From Longimicrobiales bacterium (GTDB lineage: Bacteria; Gemmatimonadota; Gemmatimonadetes; Longimicrobiales; Gaopeijiaceae), in NCBI GenBank assembly GCA_965219445.1, contig CBDCNQ010000005.1, positions 512,001 to 576,000 of the forward strand: a stretch of 64,000 bases of DNA, given 5' to 3'. Below the pieces are notes generated by a model, which worked only from the letters and a program-made list of their open reading frames with translations, was not told the DNA's origin and ran no database searches. A program made the position numbers and the translations under genes. Below, one piece after another: positions 1-27,563 of the stretch (within the stretch, counting starts at the first letter, position 1; every line of letters begins with the position of its first letter).

Positions 1-2704
1 CCTGATCGTCGAACCGCCCCAGGAATTCCAACTGCCCATCTGAGCGCCACCGCACACGATCCCCCGTCACGTACAAACGCTCCCCCCTCTCGCCAAACGG
101 GTTCGGCACGAACCGCTCCGCTGTCAGGCCTGCTCGACCCCAGTACCCCCGAGCTAAACCCGCACCTCCGATGTACAACTCGCCCGCCACACCCACCGCC
201 ACCAACTGCATCCCCCCGTCCAGCACGTACAACGTCCATCCCGGTAATGGACGGCCGATCGCGCTGTGTCTCGTTGCACTCTCCTTAACATCCAATCTCT
301 TGAGCGTACTGTGGACAGTCGCTTCTGTGATCCCGTACATATTGCACAAGATCAGGTCGCTGTCCGCACGCTCCCGAAGCCAATCCTGAGTGCTCGTTAC
401 GTCCAGCGCTTCACCGCCCAGCACCACATATTTCACGCCACTTAGAAACGCCTCATCGCACTGACCATCGACGTTCCTGAGCTCCATGAACGCCGAAGGC
501 GTTTGGTTGACGATAGTAATTCCCTCGTCGCGAATAAACTCACCAAACGCTGTCGCCGACCTGCTTACCCAGAACGGCACAATGACCAGTCGAGATCCGT
601 GAAGCAGCGCGCCCCATATCTCCCACACGGAAAAGTCGAACGCATAGGAGTGGAATAGCGGCCAAGTATCCGATTCATCGAACCGAAAATGATGATCCGT
701 GGCCCTGAAGAGCCCCGCCACTGCACCGTGCGGGATCAGAACACCTTTCGGGGTACCCGTGGAGCCGGAGGTGTAGATGATATAGGCCAGGTTCTCGGGA
801 TCGACCGGCACCTGCAGATTCATCGTATCCGCGGTATCGAAGATCGGCTCCTCTCGATCGAGGTACACGACTTCCACGGCCAGTGACGGTACCCGGTCCA
901 CCAGACGCCGCTGCGTCAGTAATACCTCGACCTCACTGTCCTCCGCCATGAATGCCCGCCGCTTCGGCGGATAGTCAGGATCTAGTGGCACATACGCTCC
1001 GCCCGCCTTCAATGCCCCCAACATCCCCACTACCAACTCCATCCCACGCTCTACACACAGCCCTACCCGTACTTCCGGACCCACACCCAGCCGCCTCAGT
1101 TGATGCGCAACCTGATTCGCCCGCTCGTTCAGCTCTCTGTACGTATACCGCTCCCCCTCACACTCCACTGCAATCCCTTCCGGCGTTCGCTCCACCTGCC
1201 CTTCGAACAGCTCGTGAACACTCGCCTCCGGATACGATACCCCCGTCTCGTTCCACTCCTCCAACAGCTGCCGACGCTCGTCTTCACCCAGCATCGCCAT
1301 CTCATAAATCGGACACTCCACATCCTCCACCACACTCTCCAACAACCGCCCGTAATGTCCCATCATCCGCTCGATCGTCGCGCTATCGAACAGGTCCGTG
1401 CTGTATCCACAGCTGCCCACAACCGACCCGTCCTCCTTCTCCACAAGCATCGCAACCAGATCGAACTTGACGGACCGCCCTTTCGGGAGGGCGAAAGGGT
1501 ATCCGAACGAGGACCTTGCTTCAGAATGAGGTCGTACAGCTCTGAATCCAACAAACACCTGGAAGACCGGATTGTACGCCGGACTCCGTTCGACGTTGAG
1601 CTCCTCCACCAGCTTCGCGAACGGCAGATCCTGATGCTCGTACGCCTCCAGCGTCGTCTCACGAATCCGTCGCAGCACCTCCCGGAAGCTCGGCTCCCCC
1701 GACAGATCCGTCCGTAGCGCTAGCGTGTTGGTGAAGAACCCGATCAGTCCTTCGAATTCCTCTCGGCTACGGTTCGCGATCGATGTCCCGACGACGACAT
1801 CTTCCTGTCCCGAATACCGAGCCATCAGAACCTTGAACGCCGCCAGCAACACCATGAACAGCGTCGCACCTTCTTCCCGACCCAAAGCCCGCAAACCCTC
1901 CACCACCTCCGCTGGGATATCGAACCGCTCGCGCCCCCCTCGGTGACTCTGAACCGCCGACCGGGCTCGATCCGTCGGCAACTCCAACAACTCCGGAGCC
2001 CCCGATAACTTCCCCTTCCAGTACGTCAGCTGCCTCGCTAGCTCCCCACCCTCCAACCACTCTCGCTGCCACATGGCGTAGTCCGCATACTGCACCGGTA
2101 GCTCAGGCAATGGTGACGTCGCCGAACCACCCCCGTACGCCTCGTACAGCACACTCAACTCCCGGAACAGTACATCCATGCTCCATCCATCACTCACAAT
2201 GTGATGCATCGACAGAAGCAGGACATGCTCCGAATCGGACAACCTCAATAGCTCCGCCCGGAACAGTGGCCCTCGCTCCAGATCGAAGCCCCGCCCCGCC
2301 ATCTCCTCCGCCCGCTGCCGAATCTCCTCCTCCAACTCCGCCCCACCCAGACCCGTCAGATCCTCCCGCGGTAACTCCCACCCCCCAGCCTCTCCCACCA
2401 CCTGCCAAGGCTCCCCGTCAATCTCCACAAACGTCGTTCGCAACGACTCATGCCGACCGATCACCTCCCCAATCGCCCACTCTAACCCCCCAACATCCAA
2501 CACCCCAGACAGACGAACTCCAGATCTTAGTTTATACGCGTCGATTGTCTCACCTAGGGAATGTAGAAACCACAGGCCCGACTGGAGCGCACTAGTCGGT
2601 GCGAGGCGGATAGTGTGAGGCAGCCCGAGAAGTTCAGCGAAATCGACTCGTTTCACGGTGCCATTATAGTAGATGGTTTCTCTTCGCCGTTCCTGAAGAG
2701 GCAT
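1..2704 (-). CDS. NRPS gene 3 (C-A..., runs off the left edge); A domain predicted to activate Thr
   Basis: Not in the ORF track because it has no stop in the window; translated by hand from ATG 2704 (GTG 2722 possible). C-domain start APTSALQSGLWFL, MHHIVSDGWS, A3 YTSGSTGTPKG, FDFSVWEIWG, NQTPS, NMYGITEATVH. Pocket code read by eye as DFWNVGMVH(K), Thr-type. Confidence 0.9.
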   Translation of the reverse strand, partial: MPLQERRRETIYYNGTVKRVDFAELLGLPHTIRLAPTSALQSGLWFLHSLGETIDAYKLRSGVRLSGVLDVGGLEWAIGEVIGRHESLRTTFVEIDGEPWQVVGEAGGWELPREDLTGLGGAELEEEIRQRAEEMAGRGFDLERGPLFRAELLRLSDSEHVLLLSMHHIVSDGWSMDVLFRELSVLYEAYGGGSATSPLPELPVQYADYAMWQREWLEGGELARQLTYWKGKLSGAPELLELPTDRARSAVQSHRGGRERFDIPAEVVEGLRALGREEGATLFMVLLAAFKVLMARYSGQEDVVVGTSIANRSREEFEGLIGFFTNTLALRTDLSGEPSFREVLRRIRETTLEAYEHQDLPFAKLVEELNVERSPAYNPVFQVFVGFRAVRPHSEARSSFGYPFALPKGRSVKFDLVAMLVEKEDGSVVGSCGYSTDLFDSATIERMMGHYGRLLESVVEDVECPIYEMAMLGEDERRQLLEEWNETGVSYPEASVHELFEGQVERTPEGIAVECEGERYTYRELNERANQVAHQLRRLGVGPEVRVGLCVERGMELVVGMLGALKAGGAYVPLDPDYPPKRRAFMAEDSEVEVLLTQRRLVDRVPSLAVEVVYLDREEPIFDTADTMNLQVPVDPENLAYIIYTSGSTGTPKGVLIPHGAVAGLFRATDHHFRFDESDTWPLFHSYAFDFSVWEIWGALLHGSRLVIVPFWVSRSATAFGEFIRDEGITIVNQTPSAFMELRNVDGQCDEAFLSGVKYVVLGGEALDVTSTQDWLRERADSDLILCNMYGITEATVHSTLKRLDVKESATRHSAIGRPLPGWTLYVLDGGMQLVAVGVAGELYIGGAGLARGYWGRAGLTAERFVPNPFGERGERLYVTGDRVRWRSDGQLEFLGRFDDQ

Positions 2705-2734
2705 CGAATGGAGGTCGGACACGGGCTATCTAGC

Positions 2735-5527
2735 CTAGACATCCGGTGCACCTTGATCGGGCCTAACCCTTTTTCCCCTCACCTTCTCGATCACAAGCGC
2801 TTTCGCAGATTCGTCGAGTGCGGCCAGTCTCCGCTCGATGTCTTGCTCCAACCTCGTCTGCTTGGCGGTTACGGTGCTCGTCCTATAAGGGATGCTGATG
2901 ATATGCTGCCCCAATGACGCCACATCCGGGTGTTCGAACACTGCCACGAGGGAGACCTCCACACCAAGCTGGCTTCGGATACGCGTCTGGACCCGCGTGG
3001 CCAGAAGCGAATGGCCACCGAGTTCGAAGAAGTTGTCATGGATCCCGATTTCCTCGACCCCGAGAACCTCGCTCCAGATCTCGGCGATCACCTTTTCGAC
3101 CCGCGTCCGAGGCTCCACGTACTCGGCGAGTCCATCTCTTTGGTTCGTCGGCTCCGGTAGGCTGGCCCGGTCGATCTTGCCACTCGGGTTCAGTGGCAAC
3201 TCGTCCAGTGCCACCAAATAGTTCGGCACCATGAACTCAGGAAGTCGATCGCGCAGATACCGACGCACTTCGCCCGTCCCATCCGCCCTTCCCTCCAACA
3301 CCACATACCCAACCAGTTTTCGGTCCCCCTCCTCGTCCTCCTGCACTACCACCACCGCGTCACGCACCCGCTCGTGACCCATCAGCACCGACTCGACCTC
3401 GCCCGGCTCGATCCGAAATCCTCGCACCTTCACCTGATCGTCGAACCGCCCCAGGAATTCCAACTGCCCGTCTGAGCGCCACCGCACACGATCCCCCGTC
3501 ACGTACAAACGCTCCCCCCTCTCGCCAAACGGGTTCGGCACGAACCGCTCCGCTGTCAGGCCTGCTCGACCCCAGTACCCCCGAGCTAAACCCGCACCTC
3601 CGATGTACAACTCGCCCGCCACACCCACCGCCACCAACTGCATCCCCCCGTCCAGCACGTACAACCTCGTATTCGCAATCGGCTTACCAATCGGTGGGAG
3701 GGAGTGACCACCAAAATCCTCAATCCGCATCCGCCACTGGGTTACAACGTGCGTTTCGGTGGGCCCGTAGTGATTCACGATGTGGGAGCAGAAGGCATGG
3801 AGGAGCTGGCGGTGGAGGTCAGCGGAAAGAGTCAGCCGTTCTCCGGCGAACACGATTGTCTCCAAAGCCAACCCGTGACGGCCCTGCTCTCTCACGAGAT
3901 CACATAGATGCCTAAACTTCGATGGGGTCGTGAATATCCACGACCTTAGTTTCTCAGAGCTCTTGCCGAGAACCTCTGCCACCCGGGCCAACTCTGCATC
4001 CTCGCTTGCGTTCAGGCATCCCCCGGCCAGCAGAGGGGTGATAACCTCCTGAACCGATACATCAAAGCTCACCGTAGACGTCTGCCATACGTGAATTGGC
4101 GCCTCGGAGGCAAGCACCGATACCTGCCACTGCAAGAGATTGGCTAATCCGACGTGCCGGTACGAAACGCCTTTCGGGGTACCCGTGGAGCCGGAGGTGT
4201 AGATGATATAGGCCAGGTTCTCGGGATCGACCGGCACCTGCAGATTCATCGTATCCGCGGTATCGAAGATCGGCTCCTCTCGATCGAGGTACACGACTTC
4301 CACGGCCAGTGACGGTACCCGGTCCACCAGACGCCGCTGCGTCAGTAATACCTCGACCTCACTGTCCTCCGCCATGAATGCCAGCCGCTTCGGCGGATAG
4401 TCAGGATCTAGTGGCACATACGCTCCGCCCGCCTTCAATACCCCCAACATCCCCACTACCAACTCCATCCCACGCTCTACACACAGCCCTACCCGTACTT
4501 CCGGACCCACACCCAGCCGCCTCAGTTGATGCGCAACCTGATTCGCCCGCTCGTTCAGCTCTCTGTACGTATACCGCTCCCCCTCACACTCCACTGCAAT
4601 CCCTTCCGGCGTTCGCTCCACCTGCCCTTCGAACAGCTCGTGAACACTCGCCTCCGGATACGATACCCCCGTCTCGTTCCACTCCTCCAACAGCTGCCGA
4701 CGCTCGTCTTCACCCAGCATCGCCATCTCATAAATCGGACACTCCACATCCTCCACCACACTCTCCAACAACCGCCCGTAATGTCCCATCATCCGCTCGA
4801 TCGTCGCGCTATCGAACAGGTCCGTGCTGTATCTACAGCTGCCCACAACCGACCCGTCCTCCTTCTCCACAAGCATCGCAACCAGATCGAACTTGGCAGT
4901 GTGACTGTCTGTCGAAACCGACGTCGCCTCCAGTTCACCCAGCTTGAGCGCTCGCTTCTCCGGACTGCGGAGCGTGAACATCACCTGGAAGACCGGATGA
5001 TGTGCCAGACTCCGTTCGACGTTGAGCTCCTCGACCAGCTTCTCGAACGGCAGATCCTGATGCTCGTACGCGTCTAGCGTCGTCTCACGAACCCGTCGCA
5101 GCACCTCCCGGAAGCTTGGCTCCCCCGATAGATCCGTCCGTAGCGCTAGCGTGTTCAGGAAGAACCCGATCAGTCCTTCGAATTCCTCTCGGCTACGGTT
5201 CGCGATCACAGTCCCGACGACGACATCTTCCTGTCCCGAATACCGAGCCATCAGAACCTTGAACGCCGCCAGCAACACCATGAACAGCGTCGCACCTTCT
5301 TCCCGACCCAAAGCCCGCAAACCCTCCACCACCTCCGCTGGGATATCGAACCGCTCGCGCCCCCCTCGGTGACTCTGAACCGCCGACCGGGCTCGATCCG
5401 TCGGCAACTCCAACAACTCCGGAGCCCCCGATAACTTCCCCTTCCAGTAATCCACTTGTTTGCCTAACTCACGCTGCCGGTTCTGGCCCTCCATGTCGGC
5501 ATCCTCCGCCAAGATCTGCCGATTCAT
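2735..5527 (-). CDS. NRPS gene 2: half C domain (C-terminal lobe only)-A-PCP; A domain predicted to activate Pro or a Pro analogue
   Basis: 930 aa. Begins at YWKGKLSGAPELLELPTD with no HHxxxDG. FDVSVQE, NHYGPTETHVV give pocket code DVQFVAHVV(K), Pro-type. PCP DNFFELGGHSLL. Confidence 0.92.
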   Translation of the reverse strand: MNRQILAEDADMEGQNRQRELGKQVDYWKGKLSGAPELLELPTDRARSAVQSHRGGRERFDIPAEVVEGLRALGREEGATLFMVLLAAFKVLMARYSGQEDVVVGTVIANRSREEFEGLIGFFLNTLALRTDLSGEPSFREVLRRVRETTLDAYEHQDLPFEKLVEELNVERSLAHHPVFQVMFTLRSPEKRALKLGELEATSVSTDSHTAKFDLVAMLVEKEDGSVVGSCRYSTDLFDSATIERMMGHYGRLLESVVEDVECPIYEMAMLGEDERRQLLEEWNETGVSYPEASVHELFEGQVERTPEGIAVECEGERYTYRELNERANQVAHQLRRLGVGPEVRVGLCVERGMELVVGMLGVLKAGGAYVPLDPDYPPKRLAFMAEDSEVEVLLTQRRLVDRVPSLAVEVVYLDREEPIFDTADTMNLQVPVDPENLAYIIYTSGSTGTPKGVSYRHVGLANLLQWQVSVLASEAPIHVWQTSTVSFDVSVQEVITPLLAGGCLNASEDAELARVAEVLGKSSEKLRSWIFTTPSKFRHLCDLVREQGRHGLALETIVFAGERLTLSADLHRQLLHAFCSHIVNHYGPTETHVVTQWRMRIEDFGGHSLPPIGKPIANTRLYVLDGGMQLVAVGVAGELYIGGAGLARGYWGRAGLTAERFVPNPFGERGERLYVTGDRVRWRSDGQLEFLGRFDDQVKVRGFRIEPGEVESVLMGHERVRDAVVVVQEDEEGDRKLVGYVVLEGRADGTGEVRRYLRDRLPEFMVPNYLVALDELPLNPSGKIDRASLPEPTNQRDGLAEYVEPRTRVEKVIAEIWSEVLGVEEIGIHDNFFELGGHSLLATRVQTRIRSQLGVEVSLVAVFEHPDVASLGQHIISIPYRTSTVTAKQTRLEQDIERRLAALDESAKALVIEKVRGKRVRPDQGAPDV

Positions 5528-8500
5528 TGTGACTGTTCCCGACTCCCCAATCGCTTGAGAAGTTCCTCAGCAAACGTTGGATCAAGAGAATGCATCTGAC
5601 TTGCAATCTCATCAATCATTCCTGCCTGATCACGCGTGGCAGGCGACGGCACCGATGACACATCTCGCAGAGGGCGACTCATTGCGTGCATCTCATAAAT
5701 CGGACGCTCCACATCCTCCTCCACACTCTCCAACAACCGCCCGTAGTGTCCCATCATCCGCTCGATCGTCGCGCTATCGAACAGGTCCGTGCTGTATCTA
5801 CAGCTGCCCACAACCGACCCGTCCTCCTTCTCCACAAGCATCGCAACCAGATCGAACTTGGCAGTGTGACTGTCTGTCGAAACCGACGTCGCCTCCAGTT
5901 CACCCAGCTTGAGCGCTCGCTTCTCCGGACTGCGGAGCGTGAACATCACCTGGAAGACCGGATGATGTGCCAGACTCCGTTCGACGTTGAGCTCCTCGAC
6001 CAGCTTCTCGAACGGCAGATTCTGATGCTCGTACGCGTCTAGCGTCGTCTCACGAACCCGTCGCAGCACCTCCCGGAAGCTTGGCTCCCCCGATAGATCC
6101 GTCCGTAGCGCTAGCGTGTTCAGGAAGAACCCGATCAGTCCTTCGAATTCCTCTCGGCTACGGTTCGCGATCACAGTCCCGACGACGACATCTTCCTGTC
6201 CCGAATACCGAGCCATCAGAACCTTGAACGCCGCCAGCAACACCATGAACAGCGTCGCACCTTCTTCCCGACCCAAAGCCCGCAAACCCTCCACCACCTC
6301 CGCTGGGATATCGAACCGCTCGCGCCCCCCTCGGTGACTCTGAACCGCCGGCCGGGCTCGATCCGTCGGCAACTCCAACAACTCCGGAGCCCCCGATAAC
6401 TTCCCCTTCCAGTACGTCAGCTGCCTCGCTAGCTCCCCACCCTCCAACCACTCTCGCTGCCACATGGCGTAGTCCGCATACTGCACCGGTAGCTCAGGCA
6501 ATGGTGACGTCGCCGAACCACCCCCGTACGCCTCGTACAGCACACTCAACTCCCGGAACAGTACATCCATGCTCCATCCATCACTCACAATGTGATGCAT
6601 CGACAGAAGCAGGACATGCTCCGAATCGGACAACCTCAATAGCTCCGCCCGGAACAGTGGCCCTCGCTCCAGATCGAAGCCCCGCCCCGCCATCTCCTCC
6701 GCCCGCCGCCGAATCTCCTCCTCCAACTCCGCCCCACCCAGACCCGTCAGATCCTCCCGCGGTAACTCCCACCCCCCAGCCTCTCCCACCACCTGCCAAG
6801 GCTCCCCGTCAATCTCCACAAACGTCGTTCGCAACGACTCATGCCGACCGATCACCTCCCCAATCGCCCACTCTAACCCCCCAACATCCAACACCCCAGA
6901 CAGACGAATTCCCTTCGACACGGTGTAAAACGCATCGCCAGGATACATACGATCCAAAAACCACAGCCGCTCCTGTGCGCGCGAAAGCCACAAACGCTCC
7001 TCGCCCGGGGCTCGCCTCACCCCGCCCTCCTCGACGACCAGCCCACACTCGGCATCCTGCGCAAGAGACGCCACCTCAGGGCTCTCGAACATCCTCCGGA
7101 GCGGGACCTCCACACCAAGCTGGCTTCGGATACGCGTCTGGACCCGCGTGGCCAGAAGCGAATGGCCACCGAGTTCGAAGAAGTTGTCATGGATCCCGAT
7201 TTCCTCGACCCCGAGAACCTCGCTCCAGATCTCGGCGATCACCTTTTCGACCCGCGTCCGAGGCTCCACGTACTCGGCGAGTCCATCTCTTTGGTTCGTC
7301 GGCTCCGGTAGGCTGGCCCGGTCGATCTTGCCACTCGGGTTCAGTGGCAACTCGTCCAGTGCCACCAAATAGTTCGGCACCATGAACTCAGGAAGTCGAT
7401 CGCGCAGATACCGACGCACTTCGCCCGTCCCATCCGCCCTTCCCTCCAACACCACATACCCAACCAGTTTTCGGTCCCCCTCCTCGTCCTCCTGCACTAC
7501 CACCACCGCGTCACGCACCCGCTCGTGACCCATCAGCACCGACTCGACCTCGCCCGGCTCGATCCGAAATCCTCGCACCTTCACCTGATCGTCGAACCGC
7601 CCCAGGAATTCCAACTGCCCATCTGAGCGCCACCGCACACGATCCCCCGTCACGTACAAACGCTCCCCCCTCTCGCCAAACGGGTTCGGCACGAACCGCT
7701 CCGCTGTCAGGCCTGCTCGACCCCAGTACCCCCGAGCTAAACCCGCACCTCCGATGTACAACTCGCCCGCCACACCCACCGCCACCAACTGCATCCCCCC
7801 GTCCAGCACGTACAACCTCGTATTCGCAATCGGCTTACCAATCGGTGGCTCTTTAGAGCCACGCTCGCAGCGAGCTGACGTTACATTGACAGATGCCTCG
7901 GTTGGACCGTAGAGATTGAACATTCGACGACCCGTCCCCCATCTCCGAACCAATTCCTCGGGGCAACGTTCTCCGCCAACCAGCAGCGTCGTCAGATCTT
8001 CGAATTCGACCTCCGGTAGGTGGCTGCACACGGTAGGTGGCAACTTGGCGTTCGTGATGCAGTGCTTGCGCAAGAAGTCGACAAGCCCCCGTCCGGGCAG
8101 CAGGGCCTCTCCCACCGCAATATGCAAGGTAGCCCCCGAGTGGATCGCCATCGAAATCTCTGCAATCGCCGCGTCGAAGCCAAACGACGCAAATTGGAGG
8201 ACCGCCGTCCTCGGTCCCGTGTCGAACCTGTCTATCCGATCCAAACTCACATTGGATATGCCCCTGTGCGGGATCAGAACACCTTTCGGGGTACCCGTGG
8301 AGCCGGAGGTGTAGATGATATAGGCCAGGTTCTCGGGATCGACCGGCACCTGCAGATTCATCGTATCCGCGGTATCGAAGATCGGCTCCTCTCGATCGAG
8401 GTACACGACTTCCACGGCCAGTGACGGTACCCGGTCCACCAGACGCCGCTGCGTCAGTAATACCTCGACCTCACTGTCCTCCGCCATGAATGCCAGCCGC

Positions 8501-9624
8501 TTCGGCGGATAGTCAGGATCTAGTGGCACATACGCTCCGCCCGCCTTCAATACCCCCAACATCCCCACTACCAACTCCATCCCACGCTCTACACACAGCC
8601 CTACCCGTACTTCCGGACCCACACCCAGCCGCCTCAGTTGATGCGCAACCTGATTCGCCCGCTCGTTCAGCTCTCTGTACGTATACCGCTCCCCCTCACA
8701 CTCCACTGCAATCCCTTCCGGCGTTCGCTCCACCTGCCCTTCGAACAGCTCGTGAACACTCGCCTCCGGATACGATACCCCCGTCTCGTTCCACTCCTCC
8801 AACAGCTGCCGACGCTCGTCTTCACCCAGCATCGCCATCTCATAAATCGGACACTCCACATCCTCCACCACACTCTCCAACAACCGCCCGTAATGTCCCA
8901 TCATCCGCTCGATCGTCGCGCTATCGAACAGGTCCGTGCTGTATCCACAGCTGCCCACAACCGACCCGTCCTCCTTCTCCACAAGCATCGCAACCAGATC
9001 GAACTTGGCAGTGTGACTGTCTGTCGAAACCGACGTCGCCTCCAGTTCACCCAGCTTGAGCGCTCGCTTCTCCGGACTGCGGAGCGTGAACATCACCTGG
9101 AAGACCGGATGATGTGCCAGACTCCGTTCGACGTTGAGCTCCTCGACCAGCTTCTCGAACGGCAGATCCTGATGCTCGTACGCGTCTAGCGTCGTCTCAC
9201 GAACCCGTCGCAGCACCTCCCGGAAGCTTGGCTCCCCCGATAGATCCGTCCGTAGCGCTAGCGTGTTCAGGAAGAACCCGATCAGTCCTTCGAATTCCTC
9301 TCGGCTACGGTTCGCGATCACAGTCCCGACGACGACATCTTCCTGTCCCGAATACCGAGCCATCAGAACCTTGAACGCCGCCAGCAACACCATGAACAGC
9401 GTCGCACCTTCTTCCCGACCCAAAGCCCGCAAACCCTCCACCACCTCCGCTGGGATATCGAACCGCTCGCGCCCCCCTCGGTGACTCTGAACCGCCGACC
9501 GGGCTCGATCCGTCGGCAACTCCAACAACTCCGGAGCCCCCGATAACTTCCCCTTCCAGTACGTCAGCTGCCTCATCACTCGTTGCATGTCAGAAGGTCG
9601 CGATTTCGGCCTGGCGGAGCGCAT
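5524..9624 (-). CDS. NRPS gene 1: half C domain-A-PCP-C
   Basis: 1366 aa. N-terminal half C domain, A domain (FDAAIAEI, NLYGPTEASVNV), PCP GGHSLL, full terminal C domain with MHHIVSDGWS. 4-nt ATGA overlap with gene 2. Confidence 0.92.
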   Translation of the reverse strand: MRSARPKSRPSDMQRVMRQLTYWKGKLSGAPELLELPTDRARSAVQSHRGGRERFDIPAEVVEGLRALGREEGATLFMVLLAAFKVLMARYSGQEDVVVGTVIANRSREEFEGLIGFFLNTLALRTDLSGEPSFREVLRRVRETTLDAYEHQDLPFEKLVEELNVERSLAHHPVFQVMFTLRSPEKRALKLGELEATSVSTDSHTAKFDLVAMLVEKEDGSVVGSCGYSTDLFDSATIERMMGHYGRLLESVVEDVECPIYEMAMLGEDERRQLLEEWNETGVSYPEASVHELFEGQVERTPEGIAVECEGERYTYRELNERANQVAHQLRRLGVGPEVRVGLCVERGMELVVGMLGVLKAGGAYVPLDPDYPPKRLAFMAEDSEVEVLLTQRRLVDRVPSLAVEVVYLDREEPIFDTADTMNLQVPVDPENLAYIIYTSGSTGTPKGVLIPHRGISNVSLDRIDRFDTGPRTAVLQFASFGFDAAIAEISMAIHSGATLHIAVGEALLPGRGLVDFLRKHCITNAKLPPTVCSHLPEVEFEDLTTLLVGGERCPEELVRRWGTGRRMFNLYGPTEASVNVTSARCERGSKEPPIGKPIANTRLYVLDGGMQLVAVGVAGELYIGGAGLARGYWGRAGLTAERFVPNPFGERGERLYVTGDRVRWRSDGQLEFLGRFDDQVKVRGFRIEPGEVESVLMGHERVRDAVVVVQEDEEGDRKLVGYVVLEGRADGTGEVRRYLRDRLPEFMVPNYLVALDELPLNPSGKIDRASLPEPTNQRDGLAEYVEPRTRVEKVIAEIWSEVLGVEEIGIHDNFFELGGHSLLATRVQTRIRSQLGVEVPLRRMFESPEVASLAQDAECGLVVEEGGVRRAPGEERLWLSRAQERLWFLDRMYPGDAFYTVSKGIRLSGVLDVGGLEWAIGEVIGRHESLRTTFVEIDGEPWQVVGEAGGWELPREDLTGLGGAELEEEIRRRAEEMAGRGFDLERGPLFRAELLRLSDSEHVLLLSMHHIVSDGWSMDVLFRELSVLYEAYGGGSATSPLPELPVQYADYAMWQREWLEGGELARQLTYWKGKLSGAPELLELPTDRARPAVQSHRGGRERFDIPAEVVEGLRALGREEGATLFMVLLAAFKVLMARYSGQEDVVVGTVIANRSREEFEGLIGFFLNTLALRTDLSGEPSFREVLRRVRETTLDAYEHQNLPFEKLVEELNVERSLAHHPVFQVMFTLRSPEKRALKLGELEATSVSTDSHTAKFDLVAMLVEKEDGSVVGSCRYSTDLFDSATIERMMGHYGRLLESVEEDVERPIYEMHAMSRPLRDVSSVPSPATRDQAGMIDEIASQMHSLDPTFAEELLKRLGSREQSQ

Positions 9625-10076
9625 CGAACTGCCAAGGGTTCCGTGTGGCGTCGGGTCGACTCACTAGAAAGGGGCCCCACAAACTCTCGCTCTCGCCCCC
9701 GAGTTGAACCCTCTCGCGAGACCAATTCAGCCTTCCCAGTGGTGGTATTTGCAAGCCGCAAGCTCCTGACCTTGGATCGCAGAAAACGCGGATGAATCGA
9801 CCGGGTATCATGTAGAAAGGCAGCAGGCCCTCCAATCCGCTCCGGCAAATTGACGATACTTGCTCCCGCGGGCGGTCCGAGACATGCCGGCCGGAGTGCG
9901 CTGAGCCTGCCTGTCCAATAGCTCGTGTAGAAGAAGGTTTCTCCGCATCCGTCACATCACGTCAAATGCACCGCGGAGCCGCCATCGCCGCCTCGCGATC
10001 GTAGGTCATGTCTCCCGACCGGAAGCCCTCCCGAAGCATGGACGGCACAAACTTTTCACGTCCTAGGAGGCTTGGA

Positions 10077-10292
10077 TCACGCACCCTCCGGAGTTGATTC
10101 CTCCATCTTCCGTCGCAGCGAAAGTGGGCGCATATCGGTCCACACTTCGCTGATATAAGCCAGGCACTCCTCCTTGCTCCCCCGCTTCCCTGCATCCCGC
10201 CACCCAGGAGCGTTTTCACGCTCCGCGAACCAGATGGAGTACTGCTCCTCTTGGTTGATCACAACTCGATAGACCCTGCCCTCTTCACTCAT
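10077..10292 (-). CDS. mbtH: MbtH-like protein
   Basis: NQEEQYSIW...PGWR...[17 protein letters not shown] is the MbtH signature; start taken at ATG 10292. Confidence 0.95.
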
Positions 10293-10533
10293 ACGATCTC
10301 CTCGACGATCAGGTTCCAAAGACCCTGGCTAGCCCGTTCAATGATCTGGGCCGCACCGACGGCCCATCAACCGACGCGTCCTGCCTCCTTGAAACCACGA
10401 AGATTTAGACTCCAGACTGCCGGCTCGAAACTTGGCGACACACACGGCCGCGTCTCTATGAACAGACGCTGCCAAGGTACTGATCTGCCCCCCAAAGCGG
10501 TACCCCCGTCCAATGCCAGACCAGCAGCCGCCC

Positions 10534-10886: not shown

Positions 10887-12257
10887 TGTCAACGCCGATT
10901 GAAAATGTCACACTTCGACGGCGGGTGACGAGCCTCTCGATCGTCGTTTTTTCCTTTGCTCTTGCCCTCGTTTTGCGGGGGGGGGGGCTCCGCAGGAGGC
11001 GAGTGGAGCCCTTTGGAGAGCTCGGTGCGATAATGCATCCGGTAGCTGTTACCGCGGAGGTTGACGATGTGGCAGTGGTGCGGAGCCGGTCGAGGAGTGC
11101 TGCGGCCATGACCTCGTCGCCCAGAACCTCGCCTCACTCCTCGAAGCCCTTGTTGGACATGAGCACGGTGGATGTGTACTCGTAGCGCCGGTTGATCAAG
11201 TGGAAGAAGAGCATGGCGCCGGTCTGACTGACCGGTAGGTAGCCAATTTCGTCCACGACCAGGAGCGCGGGATAAGTCAGGGCCTTGAGGCGGTGACCGA
11301 GCCGGCCCGCGGCCTTGGCTTCTTCGAGAGAGGTGATGAGGTCGGCCGGAGCGCCGTTGTAGACACTGCTTCCGCTCCGGGCTGTAGCAGTGGCCAGGCT
11401 GATCGCCTGATGCGTCTTGCCGACGCCCGGAGGGCCGAGGAAGATCACGTTCTCCTTGCGTGCCAGGAACCCGAGCGCGGCATGGACGGGCGTTGGGCCT
11501 GCATGCGCGGATCCGGAAGCCATGATGGCTCGCGAAGCGTAGGAACTCGGCGTTCTCGATACGGCGACCTCCCATGGCTCGCTCATCCTTGATGACTACG
11601 ACGTTCATCTGGTCGAACAGTAGCTCGTGGGGCACACCGCCAAAGAACGAGAACGCCTCTTCAAGACCCTCGAAGACATGCATCGTCTTCCTGAAGAAAA
11701 ACTGTAGCCACACAGGACGCGGGAGAAGCCCAGCACGGCCAGGAACGCATAACGCTTGCCCTAGTGCAGCCGAAAGTCCGCGAAGTCGACCTGACCCTGG
11801 TGGCCCAGCGGCGTCTCAAAGCGGACTACCGGATCCTCAGGCGCCGGGGGCGGACCTTGCGCACTTACTCCTTAAGTTATGTGTATCCACCCCGATGCCT
11901 GCCGCTCGGGTCTCTTCGAGAGCCAGATCGCTGTGAGTCGCGGGTAGGTCTCCAAGGGTACTTCGATGATGCCTGTGTCGGGATCCAGCTTGGTGGACTT
12001 CGGCGATCGAGGCCCCTAGGGGACCGGTTCGTCGTCCGGTCCCGATCCGATCCCCCGGCCTCGATCTCAGCGATAGATCGTGCGTCGATCGAGCTAGGAT
12101 CAAAGGCATCATAGGGGCATGGCGACCGCTACCGGTACCGATCAGCAGCGAAGCAGCCCGAAGACGAAGAGGCGTTCTCCTCCGGGAGCGGGTGCGCGTT
12201 CATCATTATTCGCGCAAGCAAGCAACCCAACCCGTCCTACCCAAGAGGAGGATGCCC

Positions 12258-13313
12258 ATGGAGAGGTATATCGGACTCGACGCACACGCGTCGAGCTGCA
12301 CGCTGGGGATTGTAGGCCCCAGCGGCAAGCGCTTGGGCTCGCAGGTGGTGGAGACGAACGCGCGGGCGCTGATCGAGGTGCTGCGAGGGATTCCGAGGAA
12401 CCGGCACTTATGCCTGGAAGAAGGGACGCTGTCGGGGTGGCTGTACGAGGTGCTGAAGCCGCACGTGGAGGAGCTGACGGTGGCGGGGGTCGGCAAGAGC
12501 CGGGGCCCGAAGACCGACAAGCTGGACGCGTTTGCCCTGGCGGAGAAGCTGCGGATCGGATCACTGGAGACGACGGTCTACAAGAACCGGGGCCAGTTCA
12601 GGCGGCTGGGGGAACGGGCGAAGAGCTACGACTTCTTGGTCGGCGACACGGTGCGGGTGAAGAACCGGCTCAAGAGCGTGCTGCGCTCGAGAGGAGTGGC
12701 CTACGGCGCGGGGCGCTCGGTCTACTTAAAGCGCGACCGGGAGGAGTGGTTGGCCAAGCTGCCGGAAGCGAGCAGGACGACGGCCGGGTTGCTGTACGAG
12801 GAGCACGACGCACTCGTGGCATTGAGGGCGAAGGCCGAGAAGGCGTTGCTGGCGGAAGCACGCAAGCATCGAGAGTGGCATGTGCTGAAGACGTGCCCGG
12901 GTCTGGGTCCGATCCGGACGGCGGAGCTCCTGCCGGTGGTGGTGACGCCGTACCGGTTCCAGAGCCGGAGCAGGTTCTGGGCGTACTGCGGACTGGGCGT
13001 CGTGATGCGGAGCTCGTCGGACTGGGTGCGGGGTCCGGGTGGGCGGTGGGTAAGGGAACCGGTACAGCAGACGCGGGGGCTGAATCGGAACTTCAACCAC
13101 ACGCTGAAGCGTGTGTTCAAGGGCGCAGCGACGACGGTGATCGGTCGGGCCGAGGACGAGCCCTTGTACCGCCACTACGAGCGACTCCTGGAGGGGGGCA
13201 CGAAGCCGAATCTGGCGAAGCTGACGATCGCGCGTCAGCTCGCCTCGATCGTGCTAGCGGTGTGGCGCACGGGCGAAGCGTACGACCCCAAGAGACTGGA
13301 AGCGACGGAGTAA
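12258..13313 (+). CDS. IS110-family DEDD recombinase/transposase
   Basis: YIGLDAH, CLEEG and KTDKLDA (DEDD RuvC-like domain); C-terminal PGLGP..AYCGL..RSSS; GAGGAGG RBS before ATG 12258; frame intact. Confidence 0.95.
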   Translation: MERYIGLDAHASSCTLGIVGPSGKRLGSQVVETNARALIEVLRGIPRNRHLCLEEGTLSGWLYEVLKPHVEELTVAGVGKSRGPKTDKLDAFALAEKLRIGSLETTVYKNRGQFRRLGERAKSYDFLVGDTVRVKNRLKSVLRSRGVAYGAGRSVYLKRDREEWLAKLPEASRTTAGLLYEEHDALVALRAKAEKALLAEARKHREWHVLKTCPGLGPIRTAELLPVVVTPYRFQSRSRFWAYCGLGVVMRSSSDWVRGPGGRWVREPVQQTRGLNRNFNHTLKRVFKGAATTVIGRAEDEPLYRHYERLLEGGTKPNLAKLTIARQLASIVLAVWRTGEAYDPKRLEATE

Positions 13314-13698: not shown

Positions 13699-13789
13699 AA
13701 GGGTGTGTAAAAAGAGAGGCGACGTACCTTTGCGCTGAGATTTAAACCAGCGAGCCCGGGTGACAGCCCGGGGAAAGGAACGTCGCCTC

Positions 13790-15035: not shown

Positions 15036-15324
15036 TACGTTTACACACCTATTGACCCAACCTCCGTCGATCAACGCCCAGGTCACTCGCCAGGGCTGCC
15101 TTCGACATGCCTTGTTCGAGATAGTGTCTGAGCAACACATGCTCCTCTGTTCCGTACATCGCGCCTCCGACGTGTGGGTAGAGTCGCAAAGATGGAGGAT
15201 CGACGCGTGGGCGCTCAGTTAGTAGAGCTTACGCTCGGCGCCTCGCAGCCCGACCTACAGGACCGCGGAGTGTGACATTTTCGTCCGCCACTTCTGTGTA
15301 AGCGCTTAGTCCGCCGCTAACGAT

Positions 15325-16855: not shown

Positions 16856-16979
16856 ATTTGTCCCATCGTGACCCGACTTAGATTGAATCCGATCTCCTTC
16901 GTGCTCGGAAATTGACTCTTCTTCCAGCATCGCCCGAAACTAGGCCTTACCCTCTGTGAGTGGCGGATTATTTCGACTT

Positions 16980-17660: not shown

Positions 17661-17674
17661 TGGGGACCCGAACT

Positions 17675-18619: not shown

Positions 18620-18730
18620 TGTTCACCCTTCCTTCCACCCTGGCGGGAACAGGACTCGTGTCGCCGTGCACCCCTTAGAATAACGACTGGAGCGTGTGGC
18701 GTCATCCTGATCCCTTGAGCACTGGGCAGC

Positions 18731-19579: not shown

Positions 19580-19609
19580 CGTGGTCGCGCGGAAAGATCC
19601 ATGGACGTC

Positions 19610-22784: not shown

Positions 22785-25700
22785 GTGACAATGACTACAG
22801 GGAAAGTGATCCGGAACGCAGCGACGCCGGAGACTCTCGAGGTGGAGGTACCGGAGAACGGGATCCCGGCGTCGTGTGAGGTGATCAGGCCAGAGATGCT
22901 GCCGCTTGTGGAGTTGGATCAGACGGAGATCGAGGGGATCGTGGCGGGAGTGGAGGGCGGAGCGAGGAACGTGCAGGACATCTATGCGCTTGCTCCGTTG
23001 CAGGAAGGGATCCTGTTCCACCACCTGATGGCGGGGGAGGGGGATCCCTACCTGCTATCGCACCTGATGGGCTTCGACAGTCGAGAGCGGTTGGAAGCGT
23101 ACGTGGGGGCTTTGCAGGCAGTGATCGACCGACACGACATCTTGCGAACGGGGGTGGTGTGGGAAAGGCTCCGGGAGCCGGTACAGGTGGTGTGGCGCAA
23201 GGCTCGGCTAGTGGTAGAGAAGGTTGAGTTTGACGCGGCCGAGGGTGACGTGGCGGAGCAGCTGTGGGAGTGGTTCGATCCGAGGCAGTACAGGATGGAT
23301 GTGGGTCAAGCGCCGCTGATGCGGGCTTATGTGGCCCACGATGAGGTTCGGGGGCGCTGGCTGCTGCTGCTGCTGCGGCATCACCTCATTAGCGACTACA
23401 CGACGCTGGAGGTGCTGCAGGCGGAGATTGAGGCGCACCTTTTGGGTCGTGCGGACGTGCTACCCGTTCCGCTGCTTTTCCGGAACTATGTGGCTCAGGC
23501 TCGATTGGGCGTGAGTGCAGCGGAGCACGAGGTTTTTTTCGGGAAGCTGTTAGGCGACGTGGAGGAGCCGACGGCACCGTATGGTCTGCTGGACGTGCAG
23601 GGCGATGGGGGGGGGATCGAAGAAGCGCGGCTGAAAGTGGACGGGGCGCTGGCGGGTCGGCTGCGCGAGCGAGCGAGGAAGCTGGGAGTGAGTGCTGCGA
23701 GTCTATGTCATGTGGCGTGGGCGCAGGTACTGGCGCGTGTATCGGGCCGCGAGGACGTTGTATACGGCACGGTGTTGTTTGGTCGCATGCAGGGTGGAGA
23801 GGGATCGGACCGAGTGATGGGTCTGTTCATCAACACGCTACCGGTACGTATCGGAGTGGGTGAGGAGGGAGTGGAGGCGAGTGTGCGGCGTACGCACACG
23901 CTGCTGGCTGATCTGCTGCGTCACGAGCACGCGTCGCTGGCACTGGCGCAGCGGTGCAGTGGAGTAGAGGCACCGACGCCGTTGTTCACGGCGCTACTGA
24001 ATTACCGCCACAGCGGGGGTGGGGGGCGAGCCCGATCAGCGGAGGCACGGCGGGGCATCGAGCGGCTCAGGGGCGAGGAGCGCACGAACTATCCGCTGAC
24101 GCTGTCGGTGGACGATCTGGGCGAGGAGTTCGGGCTGACGGTGCAGGTACGGGCTTCGGTGGGGCCGATGCGGGTGTGTGCGTTGATGCATCGGGCGCTG
24201 GAGGTGCTGGTGGGCGCGCTGGAGAGTGCGCCGGATCGTGCGCTGGGGAGCCTGGACGTGCTCCCGGAGTCTGAGCGCAGACAGGTGGTGGAAGAGTGGA
24301 ACGCGACGGAGGTCGCGTTTCCGAGCGATATGTGCGTGCATGAGTTGTTCGAGACTCAGGTTAAACGCACACCCGACGCTGAAGCGGTGCTGTTTGAGGA
24401 CGAGCGTCTGAGTTATGCGGAGCTGAACGCTCGCGCGAATCAGCTGGCTCACTATCTAATAGAGGGGGGAGTGGGTCCGGACGCTCGGGTGGCGATCTGC
24501 GTAGAGCGCTCGATCGAGCTGGTGGTGGGTCTGTTGGGGATCTTGAAGGCGGGCGGCGCGTATGTGCCGCTCGATCCTGAGTACCCGGTCGAGCGGCTGA
24601 GGTACATGCTCGACGACAGTGCTCCGGTGGTGGTATTGACACAAGGGTCACAGGCGGGGCTCTTTGAGGGGCTGAGCGAGAAGGTACCGGTGCTCGAGCT
24701 CGATGCACCGCAGTGGGCGGACCGACCGGATACGAACCCGGATCGTGAGGGGGTGGGGCTGACGTCGGATAATCTGGCGTACGTGATTTACACGTCGGGC
24801 TCCACTGGTCAGCCCAAGGGGGTCATGGTCGAGCACCGAGAGCTGGTGAACTTCATCGACTGGTATCGGCGAGAATTCCGGATCTCGGAGCGCGATGCGG
24901 TCCTGATTGCAACGTCTTACAGCGCGGCCCTGACACAAAAGAACCTGTTCAGTCCGCTGTTCGCAGGCGGACAGGTGCACCTGGCGAGCGAGCCGTTCGA
25001 TCCGCAGGGTATTCTAGCGCATATCGTGGAATGCCGGATCAGCATGATGAATCTGACGTCGTCCGCGTTCCACTCGCTCATCGACGCGAGTCGGGCCGGT
25101 GAGTTTATCGGGGTGCGGCTCGTGGTCCTGAGTGGAGAGGCGACACGGCCGAGGAAGCTGATGGAGCTTGCGGAGCCCCGGCCGGAGCTCGTGAGCGTGT
25201 ACGGGTCGACTGAGGTTTTGGGGGTGGCTTACCACCGCATGTCGCCGGACCTGGAGACATACCTGGATCGGTCAGTTCTGCTGGGCGACCCGATCAGTAA
25301 CGCTCGGATCTACATCGTGGACGGTCGAGGCGAGCCGGTGCCGGTGGGAGTGGTCGGTGAGCTGTACATCGGGGGTGCGGGAGTGGCGCGTTGCTACCAG
25401 AACCGACCGGAACTGACGGCGGAGCGTTTCATCCCGGACTGGTTCAGCGGCGAAGCGCATGCACGACTGTACCGAACGGGAGACCTGGGTCGGTGGCTAC
25501 CGGACGGTACGATCGAGTTCGTGGGCCGCAACGACGATCAGGTGAAGGTGCGGGGCTATCGGATCGAGTTGGGCGAGATCGAGGCACGGCTGGGTGAGCA
25601 TGCTGCGGTACGTGAGGCTGTGGTGCTGGCTCGTGAGGATGCTCCGGGTGACAAGCGACTGGTGGCATACTACGTGGGTGAGCAGGCTGTGGGAGCGGAG

Positions 25701-27563
25701 GTACTACGCGTGCATCTACTGGAGCGCCTGCCGGAGTACATGGTTCCAGCGGCTTATATGCGGCTGGACGTGTTGCCACTGACGGCGAACGGTAAGGTGG
25801 ACCGGAGGGCGCTACCGGCGCCTGAGGGTGATGCGTATGTGAGGCGCGGCTACGAGGCACCGGTGGGCGAGACGGAGGATGCGTTGGTAGAGCTGTGGCA
25901 GGAGGTGTTGGGAGTTGAGAGAGTGGGTCGTTGGGACAACTTCTTCGAGTTGGGCGGGCACTCGCTGTTGGTGGTGACGCTGCTCGAGCGTATGCGGCGA
26001 CGGCGGCTGCATGTGGAGACGCGTGCGCTGTTCACAATGCCGACGCTGGTGGGGTTCGCGGCTGCGGTGGGTGGCGAGACTCTCGAGGTGGAGGTACCGG
26101 AGAACGGGATCCCGGCGTCGTGTGAGGTAGTCAGGCCGGAGATGCTACCGCTTGTGGAGTTGGATCAGACGGAGATCGAGGGGATTGTCGCGGGAGTGGA
26201 GGGCGGAGCCAGGAACGTGCAGGACATCTATGCGCTTGCTCCGTTGCAGGAAGGGATCCTGTTCCACCACCTGATGGAGGGCGAGGGGGATCCCTACCTG
26301 CTATCGCACCTGATGGGCTTCGACAGTCGAGAGCGGTTGGAAGCGTACGTGGGGGCTTTGCAGGCAGTGATCGACCGACACGATATCTTGCGAACGGGGG
26401 TGGTATGGGAAGGGCTACGGGAGCCAGTACAGGTGGTGTGGCGCAAGGCTCGGCTAGTGGTAGAGGAGGCGGAGTTGGATCCGGCCGAGGGTGACGTGGC
26501 GGAGCAGCTGTGGGAGTGGTTCGATCCGAGGCAGTACAGGATGGATGTGGGTCAGGCGCCGCTGATGCGGGCCTACGTGGCTCACGATGAGGTTCAGGGG
26601 CGCTGGCTGCTGCTGCTGCTGCGGCATCACCTCATTAGCGACCACACGACGCTGGAGGTGTTGCAGGCGGAGATTGAGGCGCACCTATTGGGTCGTGCGG
26701 ACGTGCTACCCGTTCCGCTGCCGTTCCGGAACTACGTGGCACAGGCGCAGCTGGGAGTGAGCGCGGCGGAGCACGAGCGGTTCTTCGGGGAGCTGTTGGG
26801 TGACGTGGAGGAGCCGACGGCACCGTTCGGTCTGCTAGACGTGCAGGGCAATGGGACGGGGATCGAGGAAGCGCGGCTCGAGGTGGAGAGGGCACTGGCG
26901 GGTCGGTTGCCGGCGAGCGCGAGGAAGCTGGGGGTGAGCGTAGCGTGCGTGTGTCATGTGGCGTGGGCGCAGGTCCTCGCGCGTGTGTCGGGTCGTGAGG
27001 ATGTGGTGTTTGGCACGGTGCTGGTCGGTCGGATGCAGGGCGGTGAGGGAGCCGACCGAGTGATGGGTCCGTTCATCAACACACTGCCGATGCGGATCCG
27101 GGTAGGTGAGGAGGGAGTGGCGATGAGCGTGCGACGTACACACACGCTGCTGGCGGACCTGCTGCGTCATGAGCATGCGTCGCTGGCGATGGCTCAGAGA
27201 TGCAGTGGAGTGCAGGCACCTACGCCGTTGTTCTCAGCGCTTCTGAACTTCCGACACCATGGGGGTGAGGGTAGGAAGGCCCACTCTCTGGAGGTGCGGC
27301 AGGCGTGGAAGGGCATCGAGAGGCTCAGAGTCGAGGAGCGTACGAACTATCCGCTGACGCTGTCGGTGGATGATCTGGGTGAGAGCTTCCGACTCACGGC
27401 GAAGGCAGAGGGTTCGGTCGGACCGAAGCGCGTGTGCTTGCTGATGCATCGTGCACTGGAGGTGCTGGTGGAGGCGCTGGAGGAGGCGCCGGAGACGGCG
27501 GTGGGGAGCCTGGACGTGCTCCCGGAGCGAGAGCGCACGCAAGTCGTGGTGGAATGGAGCTAG
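22785..27563 (+). CDS. NRPS fragment: dual E/C-A-PCP-dual E/C, truncated by IS630
   Basis: QDIYALAPLQEGILFHHLxxxxGDPY (dual E/C motif) occurs twice; HHLISD; A3/A7/A8/A10 motifs; PCP GGHSLL. It starts in an inter-module linker and ends VVEWS* at an IS630 CTAG. Confidence 0.88.
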   Translation: MTMTTGKVIRNAATPETLEVEVPENGIPASCEVIRPEMLPLVELDQTEIEGIVAGVEGGARNVQDIYALAPLQEGILFHHLMAGEGDPYLLSHLMGFDSRERLEAYVGALQAVIDRHDILRTGVVWERLREPVQVVWRKARLVVEKVEFDAAEGDVAEQLWEWFDPRQYRMDVGQAPLMRAYVAHDEVRGRWLLLLLRHHLISDYTTLEVLQAEIEAHLLGRADVLPVPLLFRNYVAQARLGVSAAEHEVFFGKLLGDVEEPTAPYGLLDVQGDGGGIEEARLKVDGALAGRLRERARKLGVSAASLCHVAWAQVLARVSGREDVVYGTVLFGRMQGGEGSDRVMGLFINTLPVRIGVGEEGVEASVRRTHTLLADLLRHEHASLALAQRCSGVEAPTPLFTALLNYRHSGGGGRARSAEARRGIERLRGEERTNYPLTLSVDDLGEEFGLTVQVRASVGPMRVCALMHRALEVLVGALESAPDRALGSLDVLPESERRQVVEEWNATEVAFPSDMCVHELFETQVKRTPDAEAVLFEDERLSYAELNARANQLAHYLIEGGVGPDARVAICVERSIELVVGLLGILKAGGAYVPLDPEYPVERLRYMLDDSAPVVVLTQGSQAGLFEGLSEKVPVLELDAPQWADRPDTNPDREGVGLTSDNLAYVIYTSGSTGQPKGVMVEHRELVNFIDWYRREFRISERDAVLIATSYSAALTQKNLFSPLFAGGQVHLASEPFDPQGILAHIVECRISMMNLTSSAFHSLIDASRAGEFIGVRLVVLSGEATRPRKLMELAEPRPELVSVYGSTEVLGVAYHRMSPDLETYLDRSVLLGDPISNARIYIVDGRGEPVPVGVVGELYIGGAGVARCYQNRPELTAERFIPDWFSGEAHARLYRTGDLGRWLPDGTIEFVGRNDDQVKVRGYRIELGEIEARLGEHAAVREAVVLAREDAPGDKRLVAYYVGEQAVGAEVLRVHLLERLPEYMVPAAYMRLDVLPLTANGKVDRRALPAPEGDAYVRRGYEAPVGETEDALVELWQEVLGVERVGRWDNFFELGGHSLLVVTLLERMRRRRLHVETRALFTMPTLVGFAAAVGGETLEVEVPENGIPASCEVVRPEMLPLVELDQTEIEGIVAGVEGGARNVQDIYALAPLQEGILFHHLMEGEGDPYLLSHLMGFDSRERLEAYVGALQAVIDRHDILRTGVVWEGLREPVQVVWRKARLVVEEAELDPAEGDVAEQLWEWFDPRQYRMDVGQAPLMRAYVAHDEVQGRWLLLLLRHHLISDHTTLEVLQAEIEAHLLGRADVLPVPLPFRNYVAQAQLGVSAAEHERFFGELLGDVEEPTAPFGLLDVQGNGTGIEEARLEVERALAGRLPASARKLGVSVACVCHVAWAQVLARVSGREDVVFGTVLVGRMQGGEGADRVMGPFINTLPMRIRVGEEGVAMSVRRTHTLLADLLRHEHASLAMAQRCSGVQAPTPLFSALLNFRHHGGEGRKAHSLEVRQAWKGIERLRVEERTNYPLTLSVDDLGESFRLTAKAEGSVGPKRVCLLMHRALEVLVEALEEAPETAVGSLDVLPERERTQVVVEWS

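Follow-up and report, generated by a model that had tools for sequence, protein, structure and literature searches.

A guanine-rich module scaffold repeated around different specificity pockets in a nonribosomal peptide synthetase cluster of a Longimicrobiales bacterium

Organization of the cluster

The DNA considered here is a stretch of 64,000 nucleotides (nt) from a Longimicrobiales bacterium (assembly GCA_965219445.1, contig CBDCNQ010000005.1), referred to as the window, and carries part of a nonribosomal peptide synthetase (NRPS) cluster in which near-identical condensation (C), adenylation (A) and thiolation (T) domain DNA, termed the scaffold, surrounds different specificity pockets. 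The genome analyzed (G000) comprises 4.56 Mb in five contigs with many insertion sequences (IS). In the A-domain tree, a domain from another genome of the order has a Longimicrobium sp. protein as its short-branched neighbor, which fits a likely placement in Longimicrobiales. The window equals G000:C5:512001-576000, and C5 coordinates are given for parts left of it.

The three A domains in question belong to one minus-strand operon that runs 16 kb past the left window edge. Its order is MbtH, N1, N2, N3, a cysteine-synthase-like gene, an ApgM-like gene, N4 and SDR, with seven NRPS modules across N1-N4. All four NRPS frames are open, and ATGA overlaps occur at three gene junctions. The MbtH-like protein (10077..10319, minus strand) is followed by N1 (5524..9624, minus strand; 1366 amino acids (aa)), which is organized as half C - A (DAAKLGLVN) - T - C and is likely the starter gene. 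N2 (2735..5527, minus strand; 930 aa) contains half C - A (DVQFVAHVV, Pro type) - T, and its start overlaps the N1 stop by ATGA. N3 (2175 aa; C - A (Thr type) - T - C - A (DSSKVGHVA) - T) has its 5' part at 1..2722 on the minus strand, and its end, at G000:C5:508195, is past the left window edge. Three modules and a thioesterase (TE) make up N4 (3473 aa), which lies still further left, beyond N3 and the cysteine-synthase-like and ApgM-like genes.

In both N1 (9575-9624) and N2 (5450-5527) the leading C domain is reduced to its second half, and the N2 half sits after the complete C domain that closes N1. Partial C domains ahead of starter A domains are known (10.1101/354670; PMC7253712). Compared to the starter cases described there, the partial domain of N2 is on an internal gene and less expected.

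Repeated scaffold and variable pockets

Repeats of at least 90% identity cover 15,552 of the 27,000 nt of the cluster. Between the three modules, compared pairwise, the upstream flank (C-domain end to TPKG) differs at 1, 2 and 3 positions in 663 nt, and the downstream flank (LYVLD to the T-domain serine motif) at 1, 0 and 1 positions in 666 nt. The identity stops at 233/234 and 727/728 for the Thr pocket (743/744 if the Pro module is the comparator), at 3697/3698 and 4169/4170 for the Pro pocket, and at 7848/7849 and 8265/8266 for the N1 pocket. A first-pass annotation, made from the sequence alone, had placed near-identical flanks around the same three blocks, and its borders were exact to the base. 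It had also called the blocks unrelated, which was wrong: they are homologous A3-A6 segments, mutually 39-44% identical in a codon alignment. The three pocket codes it had read, DFWNVGMVH, DVQFVAHVV and DAAKLGLVN, were reproduced by an alignment of 336 A domains. For the A domains we use motif names and a PheA numbering which we take to be the customary ones.

The pockets, all on the minus strand, are the Thr-type pocket of N3 module 1 (234..727), the Pro-type pocket of N2 (3698..4169), which has the longest branch among the pockets, and the N1 pocket (7849..8265), which falls into an aromatic-type clade and has a lysine at code position 4. Four different pockets start no more than 16 nt past TPKG. 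The variable block lies between A3 and the motif before A6 with the code residues inside, which is the geometry of an A-domain subdomain swap. The Thr pocket recurs together with its flanks in N4 module 3 (1847 nt at 99.8%).

Scaffold copies, likewise on the minus strand, were delimited as follows. N1 contains the second half of C, the C-A linker and A1-A3 (8266..9573) as well as A6-A10, T and a whole C domain (5689..7848). N2 contains the second half of C to A3 (4170..5449) and A6-A10 with most of T (2936..3697). In N3 module 1 the copy extends from C to A3 (728..2521) with an unconverted island at 1469-1555, and continues past the Thr pocket (1..233) to G000:C5:510266. Outside the homogenization are the N1 tail with the N2 head (5450..5688, minus strand), which are likely docking ends, and the N2 tail with the N3 head (2522..2935, minus strand).

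In total eight C-domain copies are scaffold in whole or in part, as are the fronts of five A domains and the ends of four, and some modules are only partly converted. In N3 module 2 and N4 module 1 the scaffold is confined to C; N4 module 2 follows it as far as TPKG and is unique beyond. Small unconverted islands are found in the C domains of N3 module 1, N4 module 1 and N4 module 3. The last T domain follows the scaffold to a few residues past GGHSL and is then unique through to the TE; the protein ends and the TE are unique sequence as well. Such a patchy distribution is what conversion tracts leave, and a separate import of each patch is far less economical.

Among 13 NRPS stretches of nine related genomes no repeats of at least 90% identity occur, and none of the stretches exceeds a GC skew of 0.11. 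With 0-4 differences per approximately 665 nt, the paralogues of the present cluster are far more alike than the modules of related clusters, as in concerted evolution.

Support for the assembly

Short-read contigs of the runs X1-X4, all from one study, were mapped to window positions 1-10400. These runs may include the source sample, their contigs mask rare variants, and no piece covers the whole stretch. No RNA run was among those listed as containing this DNA. The pocket contigs of X1 stop 30 nt inside the scaffold on both sides, as the branches of a de Bruijn graph would. Their depth is 3.8 for the Pro pocket (one copy), 6.9 for the N1 pocket (one copy, above expectation) and 7.5 for the Thr pocket (two copies). 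The scaffold contigs of X1 have a depth of 19-32 and at most one difference. Contigs of other runs bridge the left N1 junction and the two Thr junctions, and at the right N1 junction and on either side of the Pro pocket only 30-nt overlaps were found among the matches listed. As the contigs branch where scaffold and pocket meet and the depth of the scaffold is roughly in line with its copy number, a collapse of divergent scaffolds, which the first-pass annotation had named as a finding that would refute it, is unlikely.

In X1, the Pro pocket is covered at about half the depth of the single-copy parts 7819-8295 and 9545-10400, a difference not seen in X2. It may stem from a second, partial copy or from a strain present alongside.

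A broken orthologue in a second strain

The runs X5 and X6 (one sample, another study) yielded a contig on which MbtH and the unique start of N1 are joined by scaffold up to position 8501, followed by sequence without a match. The protein P0121 of the ENA database, which is encoded on a 41-kb contig and was separately assembled, has the same N-terminus, the same alleles and the same break, and its tail beyond the break is without a match in G000. We counted the contig and P0121 as one strain. With a depth of about 2.5 in X5 and X6, the uncovered remainder of the cluster was not taken as absence.

The stretch 8501..9575 (minus strand) thus has a broken orthologue in the second strain, joined to unrelated sequence at 8501. 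It differs at 26 positions in 1075 nt, and 23 of these carry the allele of another G000 module. Given a chance rate of 0.26 per site for a paralogue allele, this corresponds to p = 5e-11 by site and p = 0.001 by five tracts. The differences are densest at 9274-9322. Blocks with alleles of different modules lie less than 31 nt apart, which indicates that the haplotype of the second strain is a true recombinant and not a graph jump. The paralogue alleles point to gene conversion, and in this one strain they show exchange among paralogues well above point mutation. As a separate observation, 266 nt between MbtH and N1 (9785-10050) are gone in the second strain and 11 letters stand instead.

Composition and branch length of pockets and scaffold

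To decide which part is the newcomer we compared composition and phylogeny. At fourfold sites the scaffold has G/C/T/A counts of 268/54/60/60, the unique cluster genes 925/820/480/427 and the four pooled pockets 128/85/68/53. The composition of the pooled pockets deviates from the scaffold (p=2e-9) and agrees with the unique cluster genes (p=0.19).

Trees were calculated for 48 of the 336 A domains, those of the flanks by a quick search. Most of the references had been collected by scaffold queries, which favors the branch of the scaffold and should matter less for the pocket comparison. Pockets and scaffold gave incongruent trees. The pocket tree sorts by specificity, with branches of 0.89-2.11 for the pockets (median 0.38). 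The copies of the repeated scaffold group in a single clade whose depth is ordinary, namely 0.56 upstream (median 0.26) and 0.73 downstream. The unconverted flanks are long-branched, with 2.74 and 3.25 upstream and 1.1-1.46 downstream. All six pockets are less like references of the same code than all, or all but one, of these references resemble each other. In three of four groups the identity of scaffold to references is 0.50-0.52, compared to 0.49-0.53 among references; for the unconverted flanks it is 0.32-0.34, compared to 0.54-0.55 among references. The pockets therefore do not appear as the swapped, foreign cassettes of the first-pass annotation: they have the composition of the unique genes of the cluster and are as eroded as its unconverted A domains.

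Among 328 references no close pocket donor, the mark of a foreign pocket, was found (best identity 0.37-0.52), and no other NRPS A domain in the genome is suitable as a donor. An intact sister cluster was not found in the genomes of relatives, at halogenase loci or among ApgM-like matches. The scaffold DNA is without a match in 11 congeneric genomes, and its best match in 60 relatives is about 66% over long stretches. A search for the halogenase in another 400 genomes of the phylum was negative. Homocitrate synthase, PrpD, EPSPS and ApgM-like genes occur beside none of 80 halogenase loci, and the ApgM-like gene gave two metagenome matches only, at 31%.

G excess on the coding strand and tuf copy number

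The G excess within the cluster is confined to the repeats. Of 865 windows 478 are duplicated and have a mean coding-strand GC skew of +0.32, compared to +0.07 in the 387 unique ones, in agreement with the G-rich scaffold described in the first-pass annotation. N0, a separate NRPS remnant, and N1-N4 have opposite orientation and are both G-rich on the coding strand. If long frames of the genome are ranked by silent-site skew, N0, N1, N2, some transposases and both tuf genes are at the top.

The two tuf copies (G000:C4:681530-682720 and 661648-662838) differ at 2 of 1188 nt. Their silent-site G:C ratio is 140:21, whereas fusA in the same operon has 131:140. We compared 43 of the 52 listed two-copy genomes of this phylum to 22 single-copy genomes with at most 10 contigs. 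The mean tuf skew is +0.59 in the former and -0.03 in the latter; it is at least 0.47 in 33 of the 43 and at most 0.12 in 21 of the 22. The difference between two copies and one recurs in family f1 (0.72 vs -0.14), f4 (0.40 vs 0.05) and f5 (0.42 in two genomes vs -0.01). Highly expressed single-copy genes have no skew.

Over all frames, a skew above 0.35 was found in 44 of 305 multicopy and 5 of 2155 single-copy frames, as called by a crude gene caller that included some antisense frames, tuf among them. A rule that all multicopy genes are skewed fails, with many IS families lacking skew. Several multicopy transposase families, such as the one at 12192-13313, have a G excess on the coding strand (0.30-0.43 at fourfold sites); other IS families have none. 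A loss of MutS as the cause of the skew was rejected, the MutS frame being open, as is that of RecA. MutS is present in 23 of 23 genomes tested and thus does not separate strong from weak tuf skew. NucS gave two marginal matches only, in short frames. The simplest reading is that conversion writes G skew in this lineage. A candidate cause is that C:C mispairs escape MutS, G:G mispairs being repaired.

Predicted product and neighboring genes

From the pocket codes and their nearest neighbors the product of N1-N4 is predicted to be a heptapeptide X-Pro-Thr-(Asp-like)-Ala-Val-Thr, possibly chlorinated. The substrate labels on the codes are those we assume to apply. The X pocket is of aromatic type and its lysine may bind an acidic side chain. 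No paper with the N1 or the Pro code string was found and no known compound was identified.

A SyrB2-type chlorinating enzyme (17675-18619) scored above the cut-off. A 99% copy with an adjacent phosphopantetheinyl transferase (PPTase) fragment lies inverted across the cluster (G000:C5:481755-484749), and this far-side copy is interrupted by an IS; an identical IS is found at 13700-15064. The PPTase-like gene (17116-17472) is frameshifted identically in both copies, for which reason the activity of N1-N4 is uncertain. EPSPS, SDR, PrpD-like and homocitrate-synthase-like genes are found at 15515-22509; this set occurs beside none of 80 halogenase relatives. A phosphonate pathway was considered and rejected, as the sole match to the PEP-mutase family lies about 360 kb away.

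N0 (22785..27563, plus strand; C-A-T-C) begins and ends mid-module; it breaks off at the point at which a further A domain would be expected, close to an IS-like repeat. It has a coding-strand G excess like N1-N4 and an older repeat of its own (87%). Its A-domain code, ALKNVSVLG, is without the usual Asp at the first position, and the substrate may therefore not be an alpha-amino acid. Further to the right there is a B12-binding radical SAM gene of low GC content (53%; 45735-47549), whose best family match is of PhpK type and below the cut-off.

Interpretation

We consider it probable that one C-A-T scaffold was spread over the cluster by repeated gene conversion between paralogues, and that selection likely spared the pockets, the protein ends and the thioesterase. 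The homogenization by conversion that the first-pass annotation had proposed is supported by the graded modules and by the paralogue alleles of the second strain. In a first step an old, diverged cluster would have arrived in the genome horizontally. Non-reciprocal copying of the RecA type may then have spread the DNA of one module in patches, and tracts would stop in the last conserved motif before sequence that could not be overwritten, i.e. TPKG, PIG/LYVLD, the T-domain GGHSL motif and the ends of the C domains. Tracts crossing specificity pockets, protein ends or the thioesterase would be removed by selection. Finally, the copying itself could shift silent positions of the coding strand towards G in this lineage, as seen for duplicated tuf. 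As the scaffold would have overwritten older modules while sparing their pockets, the pockets should be residents and not imports.

A bolder version is put forward tentatively. A decaying assembly line may have been rebuilt in place, with one sound module overwriting eroded C, A and T scaffolds base by base and selection retaining only the parts that determine the chemistry, and many “subdomain swaps” might be scaffold sweeps read in reverse. Overwriting would write G, so that silent-site skew could date and map conversion, and the skew of GRINS (genetic repeats whose nucleotide skew is intense) would result from conversion and not cause it.

Several observations weigh against this interpretation. 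The 26 differences to the second strain include 6 G alleles on each side, i.e. no G excess in G000, and the tracts may have run either way between the strains. The cassettes had been annotated as compositionally balanced, which holds only partly for the Thr pocket, whose fourfold G:C of 37:15 lies between scaffold and unique genes. In the aromatic-type group the scaffold, too, ranks below all 10 members, and the scaffold branches are shortened because the references were largely collected with scaffold queries. Since no intact sister cluster was found, there is no pocket with a known ancestral flank. Concerning tuf, the skew is weak (0.05-0.36) in 10 of the 43 two-copy genomes, which include a genus with likewise weakly skewed NRPS genes. 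The comparison did not include 17 drafts in which a single copy had been assembled; 13 of these were measured, and 10 of the 13 are skewed (at least 0.43), with 6 at contig ends and 4 not. Outside the phylum two of three two-copy tuf genomes have no G excess, and related genomes are not independent.

The alternative that survives best concerns the origin of the scaffold and is a variant compatible with the spread by conversion. A foreign module evolving at an ordinary rate could have entered an eroded cluster once and spread by conversion, so that the scaffold would be the import; we regard this as a genuine possibility, though a rather doubtful one. The ordinary reference identity of the scaffold in three of four groups, set against the low identity of the unconverted flanks, would be expected from such an import, as would N0, a second skewed NRPS remnant with short-branched flanks 13 kb away. 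Against this, there is no close donor, the best outside match being the 66% given above and N0 being 70% like the scaffold. The reference set is biased towards the scaffold, and conversion among many copies could itself alter the rate of divergence.

It is unlikely that the skew came first and promotes conversion, as proposed in PMC8256042, or that it was selected. N0 is equally skewed although its repeat has decayed to 87%, and one IS-type frame with no second copy detected has a skew of 0.76, both of which would suit such an order. On the other hand, tuf is skewed if duplicated and unskewed if single in each of the three families tested, and highly expressed single-copy genes are unskewed.

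Still less probable is a recent tandem amplification of one module followed by recombination of foreign A3-A6 cassettes into it. The boundaries coincide with published hotspots of subdomain exchange, every pocket clusters with its own specificity class, and the 1847 nt shared by N3 module 1 and N4 module 3, pocket included, demonstrate that whole-module copying occurs. This scenario, however, requires that at least three pockets, three larger A-T segments and, within C domains, several short islands were imported, although all of them resemble the tailoring genes of the cluster in composition and are long-branched; the genome offers no donor, and the paralogue alleles of the second strain would be unexplained.

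Finally, an assembly artefact in which divergent scaffolds were collapsed or polished into a consensus is most improbable: the single-study origin of X1-X4, perhaps from the source sample, the loss of rare variants and the lack of a full-length piece would allow for it, but contigs branch at the pocket edges, X1 depth is 19-32 in scaffold and 3.8-7.5 in pockets, the Thr and left N1 junctions are bridged, the scaffold copies retain private differences, and a strain of another study has the same scaffold at 98%.

If the spread of the scaffold over resident pockets is true, the usual reading of NRPS mosaics, in which the pocket moved in, can be backwards, and composition together with branch length would provide a means to tell which part moved. 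For engineering it is of importance that one scaffold naturally holds three different pockets and half-holds a fourth. A single C sequence would, by prediction, work with several donor-acceptor pairs, and with these natural combinations of scaffold and pocket it could readily be tested whether substrates are restricted by C domains and A flanks. The contrast between one and two tuf copies in the phylum would make the order of skew and conversion testable, which is the open question of the GRINS paper.

Relation to known systems

Subdomain boundaries, concerted evolution of NRPS domains and GRINS are already published. We found no paper in the open literature, which leaves most subscription papers and supplements outside, on pocket-sparing G-skewed NRPS repeats or on a tuf skew that depends on copy number.

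GRINS are defined by duplication over more than 500 bp at more than 80% identity and by absolute values of GC skew and TA skew that average above 0.15 in 150-nt windows (PMC8256042). Ten regions of the cluster (630-3240 nt, mean identity 0.97-1.00) are duplicated in this sense and all ten have a GC skew of 0.30-0.42. The TA skew is 0.08-0.14 in all ten and 0.09 in N0, and the correlation of GC and TA skew is r = 0.27 compared to the typical r of about 0.7. The repeats are therefore regarded as GRINS-like in working and not classed as GRINS; the tuf pair, with a TA skew of 0.19, passes all thresholds. As described in PMC8256042, GRINS share with the present repeats their length within one assembly line, a skew that peaks at third codon positions, the attribution to gene conversion and, in some cases, the location in NRPS modules. 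The present skew differs in that it affects G alone and keeps a single sign along the coding strand, and the repeats are about 99.7% identical. They spare the specificity region, whereas GRINS in polyketide synthases often include the acyltransferase domain that sets specificity (PMC8256042).

Concerted evolution of NRPS and polyketide synthase domains has been described for daptomycin/A54145/CDA and syringopeptin (PMC4256081). As in these systems, homogenization is specific to the cluster, proceeds via internal recombination and leaves some domains shielded by functional divergence. The evidence presented in PMC4256081 is at domain level and from trees; the present locus adds base-resolved tract ends inside domains and a frozen orthologue.

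An exchange of A-core subdomains is reported to occur naturally in the hormaomycin NRPS. Hotspots of such exchange flank the pocket, between A2 and A4 and after A5 (PMC8097286, PMC7486941), so the crossover points suggested in the first-pass annotation coincide with hotspots already in print. The constant flanks and variable A3-A6 segment resemble A-core exchange in hormaomycin and microcystin (PMC8097286). There the pattern is read as a pocket that moves in; here flanks spreading over resident pockets are favored, and C and T are homogenized too. In the system of PMC7486941 partial A-domain substitutions generally failed. The XUT breakpoint lies in the T-domain motif FFxxGGxS (bioRxiv 10.1101/2022.12.02.518901), and the last T domain switches near it, just past GGHSL. 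Unlike in XUT, this applies to one T domain only, as other T domains switch later or never.

Gene conversion of tufA/tufB is known (PMC5485169, PMC6053082), and the tuf copies reported here likewise are near-identical duplicates kept alike by conversion. They are skewed, whereas the word “skew” is absent from the text available for PMC6053082 and from the abstract of PMC5485169. What this locus adds to the known systems is evidence on direction, a frozen orthologue, and skewed NRPS repeats together with skewed tuf in one genome.

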